A stretch of 64,000 nt of DNA, taken from positions 32,001 through 96,000 of the forward strand of contig JBBRCZ010000001.1 in the NCBI GenBank assembly GCA_038204425.1. Reading direction: 5' to 3'. This DNA comes from Spirochaetia bacterium. Lineage in GTDB: Bacteria > Spirochaetota > Spirochaetia > DSM-27196 > Salinispiraceae. Positions 31,032 through 38,605 of the stretch are shown one piece after another. Position 1 is the first letter of the stretch; each line of letters starts with the position of its first letter. The notes beneath the pieces were generated by a model. That model saw only the letters and a program-made list of their open reading frames with translations. It was not told the DNA's origin and ran no database searches. The position numbers and the translations under genes are program-made.

Positions 31032-32261
31032 ATGAGTAACCCCCTACAGCTTTCCATCGTTACCTTCAACAAAGGCGCCTATATTACTGTAGAAGGCAAG
31101 GCAAACGCCGATCAGTTTTATATTGTCCGCACCGGTAAGGTGCAGGTATCAAAAGAAGTACAAGTTGTTTCGGAAGAGGGTGGAAACATCCTCAACCCAG
31201 GCGATTTTTTTGGCGTTGTTGCGACTATGTCTGGGCACTCGCATATAGAAACTGGACAGGCTATCACTGACGTTAGCCTTATTGCCGTTTCGCGAGACAA
31301 GTTTGATCTCTTGATCGAAAAAAATACGCCTGTAGCAATGAAGATTATTGAAAGTTTTAGTAAGCAGCTACGCCATTTTGACGAGGCGCTAACTAGACTT
31401 ACCCAGAAAACAATTAAAACTGAGAGCGAACCCAGCCATCTGTTTCGTATTGGTGAGTTTTATGCCCGGCAAAATCAGTTTAACCAAGCCTATTATGCTT
31501 ACTATCAGTTTCTAAAGCTTTGCCCAGGTGATGAAAATGCTGCCAAAGCTCGCGAACGACTCGCAAAGATTAAGCCATATTCCAAAGCAGTTTTTCTCGA
31601 CGGAGACGATAAGGTCTTTACTCGTGAGTATCCAAAAGACAACATGATCTTTGCTGAAAACATGCCAGGAAAAGAACTCTACATTATTCAAAAAGGGACT
31701 GTCAAAATAACCAAGATAATGGGCGAAAATGAAGTTTTGCTTGCGGTTTTAAAGCCTGGAGATATCTTTGGCGAGATGAGCCTGATAGAGAACAAGCCGC
31801 GCTCGGCGAGTGCTATAGTGATGGAAGACAGCGTTATGCTTGCTGTCAATAAAGAAAACTTTGCGCGAATGGTAACATCGCAACCACAAATCATTACTCG
31901 GCTCACAACTCTTTTGGCTAAACGCATGTGGCTCATTTACAAACAGCTGGCCAACACGCTCATCTCTGACCCAGTGGGTAAACTATGGGACTATCTTTTT
32001 ATTCAACTCGAGCAGCAACGAGTTCTACTCAAACGCGGTGACAACTTTACCTTTTCTTTTGGTGTACGTGAAATTGGACCGATGGTTGGATTGCCGCCAG
32101 CTGTCGGTAATACTGCGGTTATGGAACTACTTAAAAGCCCAATCATCAAAAATATTGACAATAGGATTGTGTGTACCGACGTAGAAGGGCTATCAAAACA
32201 AGCTTCGTTCTATAGAAAAATGCAAAGAATCGAGCTCGCAAAACGAGAAAACAAACGTTAG
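31032..32261 (+). CDS. Crp-like protein with two cyclic-nucleotide-binding domains separated by a TPR
   Basis: CNB1 FYIVRTGKV..PGDFFG; TPR HLFRIGEFY..QAYYAYYQFLKLCP; CNB2 IFGEMSLIENKPRSASA. Confidence 0.88.
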   Translation: MSNPLQLSIVTFNKGAYITVEGKANADQFYIVRTGKVQVSKEVQVVSEEGGNILNPGDFFGVVATMSGHSHIETGQAITDVSLIAVSRDKFDLLIEKNTPVAMKIIESFSKQLRHFDEALTRLTQKTIKTESEPSHLFRIGEFYARQNQFNQAYYAYYQFLKLCPGDENAAKARERLAKIKPYSKAVFLDGDDKVFTREYPKDNMIFAENMPGKELYIIQKGTVKITKIMGENEVLLAVLKPGDIFGEMSLIENKPRSASAIVMEDSVMLAVNKENFARMVTSQPQIITRLTTLLAKRMWLIYKQLANTLISDPVGKLWDYLFIQLEQQRVLLKRGDNFTFSFGVREIGPMVGLPPAVGNTAVMELLKSPIIKNIDNRIVCTDVEGLSKQASFYRKMQRIELAKRENKR

Positions 32262-32273
32262 TACCATCGTTAA

Positions 32274-33557
32274 TTAGATTAGCTCCATTGTTTTTTGTAT
32301 TGATTGCGCAAGGCGATCTAAGGCTTTGGCGCTATGTCTATTTCCAATAAAGCACGCTTCAAACTGCGAAGGCGGAAAGTATACAGCCTTAGCCAGCAGT
32401 GCATGGAAAAATCGGCCAAAAAGCAAACTGTCACTTGCAAGGGCATCACTTAAGTTGTTGACCGGCCTTGGGTTTGCAAAGATGGTAAACAGGCTTTGAC
32501 ATTGAGCGAGTCCAAAACGAGTTTTATCAATTGCGCGATCAAGTTTTTGATAGAAAGCGGCGCTTTTTTCGGCAAGTTGCTGGTAGGTCTCAGGGTTTTT
32601 TAACTGTTTTAAGACTTGATAGCCGGCTGCCATAGCGAGTGGATTGCCTGAAAGTGTCCCGGCCTGATAGACAGGTCCAAGTGGTGCTATAAGCGTCATA
32701 AGTTGTTTTGACCCACCATAACAGGCAGCTGGCAGACCCGCACCTATAATTTTACCTAAACAGGTAATATCAGGAACTATGCCAAAGACTGCTTGAGCAC
32801 CGCCCCAAGCCAAGCGAAAGCCTGTAATTACTTCATCAAAAATAAGTAAAGAACCATGTGCTGTGCAAAGACCGCGTAAGCATTGCAAAAAACCGTGTAC
32901 TGGTAAAATTAGGCCCATGTTGGCAGCGACCGGCTCCACTATTACGGCGGCTACCTGAGTACCTTTTTCTAAAAAAAATCGCTTGAGCGCCTCACTATCG
33001 TTATATGGTAAACTTACGGTGTTTTGAATCTGATCCTGGACAATACCACTACTCGCGCTACTAACTTGGTTTAAGACGCCAGAACCGGCTTTTACCAAAA
33101 GACTATCAACATGGCCATGGTAGCAGCCATCAAATTTTACAATCAATTGTCTGTTGCTGGCTGCGCGCGCCAGTCTGATTGCGCTCATGGTGGCTTCCGT
33201 GCCGGAACTAACAAAACGCATCATCTCCATGCTTGGAAATGCATCCTTTATAAGCTCCGCCAGTTTGTTTTCTTGTATGCTTGGAGAACCCAACGAACAA
33301 CTTAGTTTGCATTGAGACTGAATAGCCTTTACTACTTTTTTGTTGCCGTGGCCAAGAATATGCACACCCCAGCTTTGCACGAGGTCTAAGTAGGGCTTGC
33401 CACTAAGATCAAAGAGATAGGCGCCCTGGGCTTTTTTGAAAAATAATGGATTGCCGCCAACCGCAGCAAAGCTTCTTACGGGGCTGTTGACCCCGCCAGG
33501 AAAAAGCTCTTTGGCCTGGGCAAGAGCCTGTGCTTGTTTGTCTGCGCCCGGTGGCAA
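32274..33557 (-). CDS. hemL: Glutamate-1-semialdehyde 2,1-aminomutase
   Basis: PGGVNSPVR, SSGTEATMSAIRLAR, FDEVITGFR, PLP lysine in LGKIIG, YQAGTLSGNP. Confidence 0.97.
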   Translation of the reverse strand: MPPGADKQAQALAQAKELFPGGVNSPVRSFAAVGGNPLFFKKAQGAYLFDLSGKPYLDLVQSWGVHILGHGNKKVVKAIQSQCKLSCSLGSPSIQENKLAELIKDAFPSMEMMRFVSSGTEATMSAIRLARAASNRQLIVKFDGCYHGHVDSLLVKAGSGVLNQVSSASSGIVQDQIQNTVSLPYNDSEALKRFFLEKGTQVAAVIVEPVAANMGLILPVHGFLQCLRGLCTAHGSLLIFDEVITGFRLAWGGAQAVFGIVPDITCLGKIIGAGLPAACYGGSKQLMTLIAPLGPVYQAGTLSGNPLAMAAGYQVLKQLKNPETYQQLAEKSAAFYQKLDRAIDKTRFGLAQCQSLFTIFANPRPVNNLSDALASDSLLFGRFFHALLAKAVYFPPSQFEACFIGNRHSAKALDRLAQSIQKTMELI

Positions 33558-33568
33558 ATGTTTGTGTT

Positions 33569-34564
33569 TTATAACGTGTTCCTTGCCAATAAATAGTCTT
33601 CGGCTGCATAGCTGAGGATCAAGTCGCTTCCTGCTCGCTTAATAGCTGTGAGTGTTTCTTCTAATGCCAATCGGTAATCTATGACACCTGCAGCCGCCGC
33701 CGCTCTCAGCATCATAAATTCACCAGAGGTATGATAGGCTGCCAAGATGATATCTGGAAACTTGTTCTTGGCTCTGGCAACTAGATCAAGATAGAGTAGA
33801 GCTGGTTTTATCATTACAGCAGTCGCGCCCTCTTCAATATCAGCTTCAATTTCGCTGATGGCCTCTTGTGGATTGCGGTAATCCATCTGGTAAGTCTTGC
33901 GATCTCCAAAACTTGGGCTCGAGCCAGCTGCCATTCTAAACGGGCCATAAAATGACGAAGAAAATTTGGCTGAATATGAGAGTATGTTAACGTTTTTTTG
34001 GTCGGAACTCTGATAGCCGTTCTCAGCCAGAAGTGTTTTGATCGCTAGAACCTGTCCATCTATCATTGCCGACGGTGCTACCCAGTCTACACCCGCTTGG
34101 GCGTGAGCAAGGGCCATTTTTGCAAGAGCGGCAGCACTGGGGTCATTGTCAAGGTGTATCTTGTCGGGCCCAATTATTCCACAATGACCATGGCTGGTGT
34201 AGGCGCACAGGCAAATATCACTGTAGACAATTAGATTCGCAAAACTGTCTTTAATGAGTCTTATAGCCTGGCAAACAATACTTGATTCTTGCCATGAGGC
34301 TTCTGCGTTGAGACTTTTTTTTTGATGATTGACTTGACCAAACAAGAGCACTTTGTTGATCCCCAAAGTAATAAATCGCTCGAGATAACTTAGCAGTCTA
34401 TCAAGACCTACGTGCATGGTTCCATCTAAGCCAACAATTGGGTAAAACGCTGTTCGGTCTTCCACCAAAAAAATAGGCTGAATAAAGTCGAGGGCTGAGA
34501 GGGAAGTTTCTGCAAGAGCATCACGCGTTGCTTGGTCGATGCGTCGCTGATGAAAGCGTCTCAT
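33569..34564 (-). CDS. hemB: Porphobilinogen synthase (Zn-type)
   Basis: DICLCAYTSHGHCG, YSAKFSSSFYGPFR, DRKTYQMD, MIKPAL; ATGA overlap with the upstream gene. Confidence 0.96.
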   Translation of the reverse strand: MRRFHQRRIDQATRDALAETSLSALDFIQPIFLVEDRTAFYPIVGLDGTMHVGLDRLLSYLERFITLGINKVLLFGQVNHQKKSLNAEASWQESSIVCQAIRLIKDSFANLIVYSDICLCAYTSHGHCGIIGPDKIHLDNDPSAAALAKMALAHAQAGVDWVAPSAMIDGQVLAIKTLLAENGYQSSDQKNVNILSYSAKFSSSFYGPFRMAAGSSPSFGDRKTYQMDYRNPQEAISEIEADIEEGATAVMIKPALLYLDLVARAKNKFPDIILAAYHTSGEFMMLRAAAAAGVIDYRLALEETLTAIKRAGSDLILSYAAEDYLLARNTL

Positions 34565-36648
34565 AAATGTGAGTCCAGCGCAGCCTGGGTTTGTCTCCCG
34601 CGGCAATGCACAAGCACACGCTTCCACCAAGCAAGCGAGCGACTCGATTTGCTGTCAAGTTCTGGGAAAGAAGCAAAAAAGCTCTCAACTGTGGATGGCG
34701 AAGTAAAGACAACATGGTCATAGCGCTCAAGTTCGTCAAACGAGCAATGTGACGCTTGGTTAATCTCCACTGTATGATAGATGTTTATGCATGCTACTTG
34801 GTGGCTCCTCTCGGAAAGCAAGCGCGGGATAAGGTCCAAAGCCTTATCAGAACGAGGTAATAAGATTCGTTGGTTACCTTGGTTTTGATTGCAAAAAGCT
34901 TCTACCAAGCCTTGAGAATCTTCTTGCTCTGCCGTTAGATCAGCAATTAACCCGTAATGTGCCAGCGCCGCTTTGGTGGTCTGTCCAATAGCTGCTACTT
35001 TAACACCGTGAAGTAGCCTGAGGTCCAATGTTCTTTTTTTGAGCAGGTTTGTATAAGCTTCAACAGTATGGCGGCTGGTAAAGATTAACCAATCAAAAGG
35101 CATTGGTTCTTTAAACAGCACCGTGAGAGCCGGGGCAGCAATTTCTTGTTCGTTTAATGGCTGAATAGCTATAAAGGGAAGGTGAGTGACCCTAGCTAAG
35201 CCAATGCCGAGCCGCTTTATTTGGTCTTGCGTCGCAAGGTCGGGACCAGTCCATAACACGCGTGGTTGGCGGTCAAACCAGTCGTTTCCGGCGCGTTGAT
35301 CGACGGTAGGCCCACCGATTAGCAGAATCGGTCCGTCGCCTTCCGGCAAATCTTGACTTGGTAGTTCTGCCAAGCTTACTAGTTTAGTGATTTGGTCCTT
35401 GGCCGCAGCGTTGCGAACCCAGACAAAATTGGTCTTGTCAGAAAGTCCTGCGTCAAACGCTTTGGTCCGAATTTCTTCCCTGGCTTCTGATGCCATAAAA
35501 AAAACGTTGGTGTCGGCGTAAGTCCAATTTATTTTTTCTGCAGGCCAAGCATTTATTAAGCTTACACTAGTTGCTTTGCCGCGCTCACTTAATGGTATAC
35601 CTGCAAATGCGGCTGCCGCTTGAGCAGAAGAAATCCCCGGTATGAGTTGGTAATCGACCAAGCGGCGCCCGAGAAATGCGGCTTCTTCACTGCCTCGCCC
35701 AAAGACCAAAGGGTCTCCACCTTTTAACCTGACAACATTCTTGCCTTCAAGCGCTGCCTCATACATGATTTGATTGATCTCGTCTTGCTTTTTTTCATGG
35801 ACTTTTTTTCGCTTGCCGACGTAAACGGTTTCGGCTTTGATGCCTGCAATAAGACTCAAATCGAGTAAGGCATCGAAAAAAACCAGGTCGGCTTGGTCGA
35901 CTAGTTTTTTTCCCCATTGACTGATCAGCTCAGCATTACCAGGACCCGCTCCAACTAAACTCACAGCTCCCCATTTCTTTCGTACGTCCAGACCAGCAAA
36001 GTTTTGCTTCATTCGAGCGTAATTCTGCCTACCGACGAGTGCAAGCTGGCCTTGTAGCGGATGGGTTTGTAGTGGCAAATGCGTTCCCGGGGGCAGATTT
36101 AGGCGCTTTAACGCACAGGCGGCAACTACAATGGCGTCAATCTCATTGCTCTGCAAATAGCTTAATCGTTCGGCAATGGTACCGCGCACGCCCACAATGT
36201 CTAAATCTGGGCGCAGAGCAAGCATGCCGTCTCGTCTTGTTGGCGAACTTGTGGCCACGCGGGCACCATGAGGTAAATCTTGCCAAGTGTAGTTGTGCTT
36301 ACTGCAAAGTTGGTCATGTGCTAGACTCGCCAAACTAAGCGCCCACACGCTAAGACCTTGAGCCAATGGCCACGGCAGGTCTTTGGCAGAATGGAGTGCA
36401 CAATCACATTCGCCTTTAAGCACTGCAAGATCGAGGTCCCGGGTAAAAAAATCTTCGTCCGTTGCGCCATCCAACAGCGACGTTTTTTTGTCTCTGTCAC
36501 CCGGACTTTCAAGCAGAACAGGCACAAAATGAAGTGTTTGTTTAAATAGGAGAGCATTATAGGCTTGGACAAACTCACTAAACTGGGCTTGTGACAAGGG
36601 ACTCGATCTTATAGCAACTTTTATTTCTGACAGTTCTTGCCCCCTCAA
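34561..36648 (-). CDS. cobA: Triple fusion: truncated hydroxymethylbilane synthase (HemC) + uroporphyrinogen-III C-methyltransferase (CobA) + uroporphyrinogen-III synthase (HemD)
   Basis: HemC motifs RSSPLS, HSAKDLP, TSSPTRR, RGTIAERL (aa 1-222); CobA LVGAGPG, RLKGGDPLVFGRG, IPGISSA; HemD WLIFTS, AIGQTT, VFTSPSTV. Confidence 0.92.
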   Translation of the reverse strand: MRGQELSEIKVAIRSSPLSQAQFSEFVQAYNALLFKQTLHFVPVLLESPGDRDKKTSLLDGATDEDFFTRDLDLAVLKGECDCALHSAKDLPWPLAQGLSVWALSLASLAHDQLCSKHNYTWQDLPHGARVATSSPTRRDGMLALRPDLDIVGVRGTIAERLSYLQSNEIDAIVVAACALKRLNLPPGTHLPLQTHPLQGQLALVGRQNYARMKQNFAGLDVRKKWGAVSLVGAGPGNAELISQWGKKLVDQADLVFFDALLDLSLIAGIKAETVYVGKRKKVHEKKQDEINQIMYEAALEGKNVVRLKGGDPLVFGRGSEEAAFLGRRLVDYQLIPGISSAQAAAAFAGIPLSERGKATSVSLINAWPAEKINWTYADTNVFFMASEAREEIRTKAFDAGLSDKTNFVWVRNAAAKDQITKLVSLAELPSQDLPEGDGPILLIGGPTVDQRAGNDWFDRQPRVLWTGPDLATQDQIKRLGIGLARVTHLPFIAIQPLNEQEIAAPALTVLFKEPMPFDWLIFTSRHTVEAYTNLLKKRTLDLRLLHGVKVAAIGQTTKAALAHYGLIADLTAEQEDSQGLVEAFCNQNQGNQRILLPRSDKALDLIPRLLSERSHQVACINIYHTVEINQASHCSFDELERYDHVVFTSPSTVESFFASFPELDSKSSRSLAWWKRVLVHCRGRQTQAALDSHL

Positions 36649-37586
36649 TGCGCATGCTCCAAGTTATTTGAACAATGTTGCTGCCATGTCAATCTGGAAC
36701 TTTGCTGCTTAGCTAGCCAGCTTTCTAAATGGCTACGCAGCAAAGTATGGGCCTTATTGGCCTTGTTTTGTCGTTCGGTTTGATTGAGTTTTGATATGGA
36801 TTCGATTGCTGCAAGATCAAAATACTCAATATGGTTTCGATGCATGCAGGCAGGATCGACGTCTGGTGGAGCGGACAAATCAATCAAAACCAGCGGTTGG
36901 GTTTTCTTAACGCTTGCATCGCGAAGTACAAAGTGGCGTGGCCTAATCAAATAGTGTGGTGCCGAGGTACAAGATATTACGCAATCGGCATCAATCAAAA
37001 TTCTGTCGAGGTCGGATAGAGGACTCGCTTTGACGTTATAAACTTGAGCCAGTTGGTTCGCAAGTGTTGCATTGCGATTCGCAAGTATTGTCCCGGAAAG
37101 TGGTTTATTGCTCAAATAGTTTAAGATTGATTTGCTAATCTCGTTTATGCCAATAATCACGACATTGTAAAACTGCCTTTGTTCGAGCAAATTAACGGTT
37201 ATTTGTCCATGGCCAATACTGCCGCGATCGAGCCCGGTTTGGTGGCGTACTAATTTGCCACAACGTAGGGCTTGCTGAAATAGCAGATGCAAGTCTGAGT
37301 TAATGGTTCGTTTTTCTATCGCTGCGAGATAGGTAGATTTTACCTGTCCTTGAATAGCCTTTTCACCTATAATTGGACTCTTGAGACCGGCGGTGACACT
37401 GGCCAAATGTTCTATTACTGGCATGGTTATTGGTCCTGATCCAAAAAAAAGCTCAAGTCGGTCACAAGTTTCTAGAACAACATAGTGTTTAATCTGACCT
37501 GTTAGCAAAAAATCTGCTAACAGCACACGTTGTTCCAATCTAAGTTTTGAGTCTGGTGTAAATGTTTTAAAAGATACCATAGTCAT
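36645..37586 (-). CDS. hemA: Glutamyl-tRNA reductase, short divergent form
   Basis: ETCDRLE (catalytic Cys), SPIIGEKAIQGQVK, SCTSAPH, IDLSAPPDVD; position in the hem cluster. Confidence 0.85.
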   Translation of the reverse strand: MTMVSFKTFTPDSKLRLEQRVLLADFLLTGQIKHYVVLETCDRLELFFGSGPITMPVIEHLASVTAGLKSPIIGEKAIQGQVKSTYLAAIEKRTINSDLHLLFQQALRCGKLVRHQTGLDRGSIGHGQITVNLLEQRQFYNVVIIGINEISKSILNYLSNKPLSGTILANRNATLANQLAQVYNVKASPLSDLDRILIDADCVISCTSAPHYLIRPRHFVLRDASVKKTQPLVLIDLSAPPDVDPACMHRNHIEYFDLAAIESISKLNQTERQNKANKAHTLLRSHLESWLAKQQSSRLTWQQHCSNNLEHAH

Positions 37587-37627: not shown

Positions 37628-38605
37628 CTAGCCAATTTTGAGCATTCGCTCAACTGAGGAGCGGGCTTTCCTGGCTATCTCGACGTCAACAAGAACCTCA
37701 AAAGTCAGGGTTTGCAGGCTGTGCAATATTTTATCCAAAGTAATTCTCTTCATGTGTGGACACGTATGGCAGGTGCTAATAAAGTTTTTGCCAGGAAACT
37801 GGCTGCGCAAGTTGTCGCCCATACTACATTCAGTAATTAGCAAAATATTGGACTTTCCCGATCTCTCAATCGCACCTTCCATCTGACTTGTCGAACCGGC
37901 GAAGTCGGCCAATTCGGTAACTGTGGTGTCGCATTCAGGATGTGCGACCACCATCAAATCAGCAAACTGATTACGAGCGGCTGCAACATCTTCTGGTCGA
38001 TAGAGCTCATGAACCATACATTTGCCTTTTTCCCAAGCAATAATCTTTTTGTTGGTCATTTTTGCGACGTTTTTTGCAAGATAGGCGTCAGGGAGAAAGA
38101 TTACCGTGTCACTATCTAGGCTGTTTACTACCTTAACTGCATTTGATGAGGTGCAACAAATGTCAGTTTCTGACTTTGCGTCAGCCGTACAGTTGACGTA
38201 GGTTACAACCGGTACTCCCGGGTACTGAGCCTTTAGTGCGCGAATGTCGTCAGAGTTAATGCTCTCAGCCAACGAACATCCGGCTTCTGGGTCAGCAATA
38301 AGCACCATTTTGTTGGGATTGAGGACTTTAGCGGTTTCGGCCATAAAATGCACACCGTTAAACAGTATAATCTTGGCATCGGTTTCGGCAGCAAGTCTAC
38401 TTAGGCCCAAACTATCGCCTACAAAGTCTGATACACCCCAATAGACGTCAGGCGTCATGTAGTTATGCCCAAGCACTACCGCTCCCAGTTTGTGCTTGAG
38501 ACTCTGTATTGCTTCTATGGTTTCCATGGCCTCTTCGACTTCGTGCGACGGCATAGTGACCAATAGTCTATTTTGTACTTCACGGTGATCGTAAGTCAAC
38601 TTCAT
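37628..38605 (-). CDS. nadA: Quinolinate synthase
   Basis: [45 protein letters not shown]. Confidence 0.96.

Follow-up and report, generated by a model that had tools for sequence, protein, structure and literature searches.

The window, a 64,000-nucleotide stretch of DNA from a Spirochaetia bacterium (positions 32,001 to 96,000 of contig JBBRCZ010000001.1, assembly GCA_038204425.1), encodes a HemC–CobA–HemD fusion protein of tetrapyrrole synthesis whose hydroxymethylbilane synthase (HMBS, HemC) part consists of domains 1 and 2 only. This HemC belongs to a large clade of two-domain HMBSs that fail two canonical features, domain 3 and the cysteine with which domain 3 holds the dipyrromethane cofactor, while the catalytic cleft is kept. 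The reading that we favor, with somewhat better than even confidence, is of an active two-domain HMBS whose clade shares a base mechanism without a thioether, and in which a cysteine of the cleft, C178, would be at most an optional anchor.

A HemC module without domain 3

The fusion is encoded at 34561..36648 as a single uninterrupted open reading frame (ORF) of 695 amino acids (aa); coordinates are those of the window, in which all genes and motifs described here lie on the minus strand. Its HemC module, made up of domains 1 and 2 only, spans aa 1–225 (35974..36648) and contains a PF01379 match at aa 9–214 (nt 36007-36624; profile positions 1–206 of 207, E 1.9e-38). A uroporphyrinogen-III C-methyltransferase (CobA) module follows at aa 229–429 (35362..35964; PF00590, E 2.8e-40) and a uroporphyrinogen-III synthase (HemD) module at aa 479–693 (34570..35214; PF02602, E 5.5e-42). 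HemC runs straight into CobA, as a first-pass annotation of this DNA had described: CobA sequence begins after ...AGLDVRKK, and the module end given there (35983, aa 222) lies within three residues of the border.

Domain 3 is absent from the fusion and from the rest of the genome. Pfam finds no PF03900 match in the 695-aa protein even at E ≤ 1, and none at that threshold in the whole genome (2.84 Mb in 24 contigs, 95.61% complete), in a search that was positive in 11 of 14 control genomes. The cofactor-binding Cys of the domain 3 G-G-C loop (C242 in E. coli, C261 in human HMBS) is missing, and the motif that surrounds it in the tails of canonical relatives, ER..GGGC, does not occur after the fusion's HemC core. 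The only PF01379 match in the genome is the fusion ORF itself. The earlier proposals that domain 3 and its cysteine are lacking, and that no other hemC is present, thus both survive a genome-wide search for a second hemC or a separate domain-3 gene, and the HemC module is the genome's sole HMBS. Curated protein models see the same truncation: TIGR00212 (hemC) is matched at profile positions 1–209 of 293 only (131.9 bits against a cut-off of 164), and the best-matching HemC model, NF002202, aligns positions 20–234 of 241 with aa 8–225 (158 bits against a cut-off of 251). For the CobA–HemD part, TIGR01469 scores 180.4 bits, just under its cut-off of 185.

An intact catalytic cleft

The AlphaFold2 (AF2) model of the HemC module, computed from an alignment of 106 sequences, is a confident one (predicted local distance difference test score, pLDDT, 95.0; predicted template modeling score, pTM, 0.90). 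Its top Foldseek matches are the HMBSs of E. coli, B. megaterium, A. thaliana, V. cholerae, and human, with query template modeling (TM) scores of 0.78–0.88, root-mean-square deviations (rmsd) of 1.5–3.8 Å, and 25–30% identity. Domains 1 and 2 of hydroxymethylbilane synthase (EC 2.5.1.61) adopt a fold like that of periplasmic binding proteins, which houses the active-site cleft, and the module shares this fold. It stops exactly at the domain 1/3 border.

Within this fold the residues of catalysis and pyrrole binding are all in place. Invariant or near-invariant across 121 sequences are R14, Q22, F68, H86-S87-K89-D90, S134/S135, R138, R155-G156, R161, A176, R182, and Q199-G200, and the catalytic residues are common (at least 90%) to 187 two-domain and 50 canonical sequences. 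Within that set, D90, R14, Q22, K89, S134/S135, R138, R155, R161, R182, and Q199/G200 are invariant or at least 97% conserved. They correspond to D84, R11, Q19, K83, S129, R131/R132, R149, R155, R176, and Q198/G199 of E. coli HemC. Counterparts of these residues hold pyrroles in the tables consulted for the E. coli enzyme (Table 1, PMC3945110) and the human enzyme (Table, PMC7959689). The HSAKDLP motif (36373-36393) includes D90 (codon 36379..36381), the equivalent of the catalytic E. coli D84, which is Asp in 121 of 121 sequences and at 67 of 67 named domain-3-less loci. The first-pass annotation had noted that this Asp and the Arg motifs are kept, and D90 and the binding Arg residues are indeed all present.

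Beyond the shared set, the two-domain enzymes carry substitutions of their own. E25 is 98% conserved among them and variable in canonical enzymes, and D66 is 94% conserved where 84% of canonical enzymes have Gly; these two carboxylates are candidates for a new role. Conversely, an Arg found at position 107 in 96% of canonical enzymes, presumably a former contact with domain 3, has been lost, and the fusion has A107. Together, HSAKDLP, DFFT[RK][ED] (here EDFFTRDLD), E25, D66, and the lack of Arg at 107 make up a clade signature that the fusion displays throughout. The HemC module is intact and, very probably, active as a hydroxymethylbilane synthase. With all catalytic residues kept, domain 3 and its Cys missing, and no second hemC, the two-domain synthase proposed in the first-pass annotation holds up as a description of the module; that it is active as such we infer with considerable confidence from conservation and genomic context.

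A large clade of two-domain enzymes

Where the first-pass annotation had treated the fusion as a single oddity, it proves to be one member of a large monophyletic clade. Searching with aa 1–225 returned 1176 proteins at E ≤ 1e-5 (2005 candidates), of which the best 120 are mostly PF01379-only proteins of 209–250 aa or pieces of HemC–CobA fusions; PF03900 is listed in none of those 120. The best 120 from a search with aa 1–460 are the query and 119 others at 39–56% identity to it. All of them combine PF01379 with PF00590, all but one also have PF02602, and PF03900 is again listed in none.

A scan of species-representative genomes extends this picture to named organisms. It yielded 80 loci, 13 with and 67 without domain 3, as called with our own profile built from 25 canonical tails. 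The 67 domain-3-less loci include Chlamydia trachomatis, C. crocodili, Simkania, and Parachlamydia; Paludibacter, Prevotella, and other Bacteroidales; Omnitrophota, Kiritimatiellae, and Verrucomicrobia; and "Planctomycetales" metagenome-assembled genomes (MAGs), Termititenax, and a Spirochaetes MAG. In the phylogeny, all but one of the 317 domain-3-less tips fall into a single clade (316 tips, support 0.935) that is nested among canonical forms and contains the query. Parsimony is ambiguous as to whether its ancestor was fused (18 against 18 changes), and we therefore do not claim the fusion as ancestral. In a 201-genome sample of the window's own phylum, PF01379 scores above cut-off in 104 genomes and PF03900 in 41.

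Two further architectures came to light in this sampling. The lone domain-3-profile-negative tip outside the clade, L045 (G018:C133:91800-94500), adjoins a group of HemC–HemD fusions; in its 623-aa frame, a domain-3-like stretch (AEREIHRRLGIGLDAAF...) comes after the HemC core, with Leu in place of the canonical GGGC cysteine. Inside the clade, L038 and L039 (genomes G089 and G068) have two-domain cores with I at residue 178, in partly fetched frames of about 620 aa, where about 100 extra residues precede the core and a tail of about 70, unlike CobA, follows it. These two represent a different architecture within the two-domain clade.

A cysteine in the cleft

The first-pass annotation had drawn attention to a Cys in the HemC module where E. 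coli has none, and the alignment bears this out. C178 (codon 36115..36117) lies in the first turn of helix 177–182, within the stretch IVVAACALKRL (36100-36132); it corresponds to E. coli A172 through the ranges aligned with structure 1pda (query 9–191, chain 6–185), and its counterpart in the LAAAG motif of V. cholerae HemC is the third Ala. It is flanked by A176 and R182, which match Ala189 and Arg195 in pyrrole-binding site 1 of human HMBS, and its placement near the cleft rests on homology to these two residues and to E. coli A172. According to the parts of the literature consulted, human Ala189 (through its backbone NH) and Arg195 bind the acetate/propionate of the ring at site 1 (PMC7959689), and E. 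coli A172 contacts the polypyrrole at the P4M–P6M stages in molecular dynamics (Table 1, PMC3945110).

Across the clade, residue 178 is far from constant. Of the 316 tips, 193 have C there and 109 have A, the rest having I (6), V (5), S (2), or L (1), with at least 11 changes between C and non-C across the clade tree. The first 121 sequences gave C178 in 47 and Ala in 72, with three proteins free of any Cys, and the 67 named domain-3-less genomes, a less biased set, have A in 36 cases and C in 24, followed by V (3), I (2), S (1), and a single gap. Intact fusions within the main triple-fusion clade have S178 (L069), V178 (L078, L080, L106), or I178 (L044, L053). The Chlamydia-type branch has Ala178 in 91 of 101 tips, often with Cys at 81, and same-class relatives of the window's genome have I, V, or L at 178. 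C178 is replaced too often to look like an attachment site that the cofactor cannot do without. Nor do we claim it as ancestral, since parsimony is ambiguous here too (11 against 12 changes).

C81, the other recurrent cysteine, aligns with E. coli A75, a residue in none of the contact lists consulted, and we rejected it as an alternative anchor. C81 and C178 are nearly exclusive of one another—58 and 47 of 121 sequences, with 2 having both, or C81 only in 77, C178 only in 187, and both in 6 of the 316 tips—and we read this exclusivity as a reflection of clade structure rather than function. Neither is present in 46 of the 316, and six tips have no Cys anywhere in the core. Five genomes were examined for a compensating gene: three with Cys-less cores, one with a V178 fusion, and Chlamydia crocodili. 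Each has one PF01379 match, and PF03900 is found in none of them at E ≤ 0.1, with completeness not reported.

Possible docking of CobA at the site of domain 3

What occupies the place of domain 3 in the fusion can be approached through its predicted structure. The AF2 model of the whole protein has a pLDDT of 94.4 and a pTM of 0.87, high for three modules. Superposed on A. thaliana HMBS (4htg; Z 24.7), it aligns over 243 residues, model 6–326 against chain 10–307; as the model has only 220 residues from 6 to 225, this match must extend into CobA. On E. coli HemC (1pda), 209 residues align (6–299 against 3–283). Further along the protein, aa 225–461 superpose on the C-terminal half of CysG and on SUMT (Z about 20–21, rmsd 1.8–2.4) and aa 461–695 on P. 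aeruginosa HemD (4es6; Z 20.9).

Complex prediction between aa 1–225 and aa 226–460 gave a score of 0.62 against 0.15 for the best control; 116 of 157 solved complexes and 2 of 215 mismatched pairs attain that mark (rough counts, with our own alignment used). The runs share at least 94% of contacts, with partner pLDDT of at least 86. On HemC, the predicted interface comprises residues 88, 91, 93, 101, 104, 197–198, 203, and 222–225, which flank the catalytic loop and the hinge ahead of Q199-G200; on CobA, it comprises the loop 324–332 and Y296. The CobA contacts are conserved: Y296 occurs in 92 of 116 sequences and R329 in 97 of 116, and position 330 is hydrophobic in 114 of 116. The prediction supports, short of proof, binding of aa 1–225 to aa 226–460, and the models suggest that CobA packs against domain 1 and the hinge, at the canonical domain-3 site.

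CobA may thus replace domain 3 as a structural lid. It would not do so as an anchor, because neither CobA nor HemD has a conserved Cys: the most frequent Cys columns of these modules hold 26, 21, 17, and 11 Cys among 120 sequences (columns 653, 365, 599, and 348). The stand-alone two-domain HemCs have no such CobA partner.

How might the primer be held?

In the mechanism that we favor, porphobilinogen (PBG) would be deaminated and the chain built in an E. coli HemC-like cleft by the same residues, with Asp catalysis; the canonical domain-3 cysteine could have no part in holding the primer. That primer, either dipyrromethane or the first PBG units, would be kept non-covalently by the network of Arg/Lys residues and carboxylates together with E25 and D66. 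C178 would be at most an extra, optional anchor in the fusion's subclade, and in the fusions CobA would pack where domain 3 sits in canonical enzymes. That the base mechanism of the clade is independent of a thioether seems to us a little more probable than the contrary. A fuller picture is one that we put forward tentatively: that hydroxymethylbilane is made without covalent dipyrromethane throughout the clade (Chlamydia, many gut Bacteroidales, Omnitrophota, and this organism), the primer being non-covalent or the chain begun on free PBG, with E25 and D66 replacing the thioether and, in fusions, CobA standing in domain 3's place and PBG channeled to precorrin-2.

The alternative to be weighed most carefully is a relocated covalent anchor, in which dipyrromethane would be thioether-linked to C178 in the fusion and its subclade, replacing E. 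coli Cys242, in an otherwise canonical enzyme. Several considerations speak for it or weigh against the thioether-independent reading. C178 is invariant in the 120 closest fusions (39–56% identity) and residue 178 is never Cys in 44 canonical cores (A in 42, S in 1, T in 1). An active-site Cys enriched in a clade that has lost the canonical one argues for an anchoring role, at least in the fusion's subclade, and the counterparts of C178 and its neighbors in E. coli and human HMBS make the pyrrole contacts described above. The Cys-less members come from metagenome assemblies with completeness not reported, the tree is a single-gene FastTree phylogeny of 366 distinct HemC cores, and our homologue samples are biased towards relatives of the query. 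Activity across the two-domain clade is itself deduced from context and conservation. Finally, the portions of two reviews consulted present the covalent Cys link as essential in E. coli (PMC13564367, PMC7242693). Set against these points are the at least 11 switches at residue 178, the intact triple fusions with S, V, or I there, the Ala178 of the Chlamydia-type tips, and the six Cys-less cores. Geometry also tells against a C178 anchor: it should reach ring c1, and pyrrole-binding site 1 holds ring c2 in the holoenzyme. On balance, we consider this rival unlikely, though well worth keeping in view.

The first-pass annotation had offered both a relocated cysteine and a non-covalent primer, and it had made conservation of C178 among homologues a test of the former. 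That conservation holds in the protein's own subclade and fails clade-wide, where only 193 of 316 members have the residue. Judged from these sequences, a relocated cysteine cannot be the clade's general solution, although beside pyrrole-binding site 1 it may still be an optional or lineage-specific anchor in the fusion's own subclade. That C178 of this one protein carries a covalent pyrrole would be compatible with a thioether-independent base for the clade, and we give it an appreciable chance, if one somewhat short of even. The non-covalent primer has become the more likely base mechanism.

The remaining explanations carry far less weight. Anchoring might be supplied by another polypeptide or module, be it a CobA or HemD Cys or an unrecognized separate protein, and the predicted docking of CobA on domain 1 and the hinge beside the catalytic loop, through the conserved Y296, R329, and hydrophobic 330, lends this idea some appeal. 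However, no Cys column is conserved in these modules, the contact loop 324–332 is Cys-free in this protein, stand-alone two-domain HemCs of 209–250 aa in Chlamydiae and Omnitrophota have no fused partner, and no PF03900 match turns up in this genome at E ≤ 1, all of which make such an outside anchor improbable. More doubtful still is a catalytically dead HemC module, kept as a relic or PBG-binding scaffold while hydroxymethylbilane or uroporphyrinogen is made elsewhere. A feature regarded as essential is missing and the module falls below the cut-offs of NF002202 and TIGR00212, but a deep clade keeps its catalytic and pyrrole-binding residues without change, and it is the sole PF01379 protein of a genome that has a translationally coupled hem operon and the consumers of sirohaem. 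Least credible of all is that an assembly error, a frameshift, or faulty gene calling removed domain 3: the frame is uninterrupted, the model of the complete fusion is confident, the architecture is common to all 119 other best-scoring fusions, and the same junction recurs in genomes of several phyla.

Operon and pathway context

The fusion sits in an operon on the minus strand, in the order nadA-like gene, hemA, fusion, hemB, and hemL-like aminotransferase. A short glutamyl-tRNA reductase gene, hemA (36645..37586, 313 aa), lies immediately upstream of the fusion, whose TTG start shares the sequence TTGA with the hemA stop and is preceded, 8 nt upstream, by a Shine-Dalgarno-like GGAG (36657..36660). 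At the other end, the TGA stop of the fusion shares ATGA with the ATG of hemB (porphobilinogen synthase; 33569..34564, with a likely ATG start at 34564). A hemL-like class-III aminotransferase gene (32274..33557) follows, in the operon position of glutamate-1-semialdehyde aminomutase. The operon of hemA, fusion, hemB, and hemL is translationally coupled.

Two observations concern the upstream end of this operon. The nadA-like quinolinate synthase gene (37628-38605; PF02445, E 3e-106) is the next gene upstream of hemA, in the same orientation and 41 nt away, and may be on the same transcript. The hemA product itself looks like a shortened glutamyl-tRNA reductase: GlutR_N is matched at profile positions 91–151 of 151 only, together with a Shikimate_DH domain; no dimerization domain is found by Pfam; TIGR01035 aligns at positions 95–336 of 416 (168.8 bits against a cut-off of 209.55); and the 338-position model NF001909 gives a partial match only. 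The TC motif (VLETCDRLE) is present.

Elsewhere in the same genome, a sulfur-assimilation/sirohaem cluster (G000:C1:496427-503188, loci L136-L139) encodes a PAPS-reductase-family protein, a short GTP_EFTU-like ORF, a CysK-like PALP protein, and a GltD-like reductase, along with two adjacent SirC-like NAD_binding_7 paralogues of 182 and 237 aa and an NIR_SIR sulfite/nitrite reductase of 527 aa. Besides the fusion, the only TP_methylase match in the genome is a 265-aa frame elsewhere. CbiD, CbiC, and URO-D were not found in the genome, and cobalamin and protohaem were rejected as end products on that ground. With these three not found, and the SirC-like and NIR_SIR genes present, the hem operon most likely supplies sirohaem only. 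The route implied by this gene content would lead from hemA, hemL, and hemB to the fusion, which would convert PBG via hydroxymethylbilane and uroporphyrinogen III to precorrin-2, and from there through the SirC-like proteins to the sulfite/nitrite reductase.

Significance

Reviews of the enzyme, in the parts consulted, present Cys-linked dipyrromethane as a general property of HMBS (PMC13564367, PMC7242693, PMC7959689), and a literature search, with subscription journals and supplements outside its scope, found no description of a domain-3-less HemC. A deep and widespread clade without the cofactor domain, some of whose members are Cys-less, makes the question of how the chain is primed and retained testable with one recombinant protein. 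There is a practical consequence for annotation as well. Named homologues of the fusion are labeled only "uroporphyrinogen-III C-methyltransferase" or "methyltransferase/synthase," leaving the HemC part unnamed. Because the fusion's HemC falls below curated cut-offs and its homologues are named as CobA or CobA/HemD only, pathway reconstructions can wrongly score hemC as missing.

Comparison with known systems

Among HemC-containing fusions, a close parallel is a set of HemC–HemD proteins of 517–580 aa (L036, L037, L052) from the same phylum and another class, in which, as here, an HMBS module is joined to a later pathway enzyme; we take such fusions to occur in Leptospira as well. They fall outside the domain-3-less clade in the tree. 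We rejected them as a precedent for loss of domain 3 or of the anchor: L037 and L052 keep ER..GGGC, and all three match the first 27–28 positions of our domain-3 profile, so that their domain 3 is diverged or shortened. PF03900 itself is weakly matched (E about 0.003) in 2 of 30 genomes of the bacterial family concerned.

Bifunctional CobA–HemD (SUMT–UroS) fusions are known from the literature. The present protein shares the CobA and HemD folds with CysG/SUMT and HemD, and adds an N-terminal HMBS module to them. For that module, the nearest model is NF002202 (PRK01066), a 241-position "hydroxymethylbilane synthase" equivalog that, like the fusion's HemC, is without domain 3, and which we take to represent the chlamydial short HemC. 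The loci of Chlamydia trachomatis and C. crocodili fall in the two-domain clade, and the fusion differs from the Chlamydia-type branch, with its Ala178 and frequent Cys81, by C178 and by the attachment of CobA–HemD.

Canonical HMBSs—E. coli HemC (1PDA/1AH5), the B. megaterium enzyme (4MLQ), and human HMBS (3ECR/7CCX)—have the same fold in domains 1 and 2 as the fusion, and share with it the catalytic Asp, the set of Arg, Lys, Ser, and Gln residues, the backbone sites A176 and G200, and the hem-operon setting. Unlike them, the fusion is without all of domain 3 (E. coli 222–313) and the cofactor Cys. It has also lost the position-107 Arg, gained E25 and D66, and changed HSMKD to HSAKD, and it has CobA joined at the exact domain 1/3 border.

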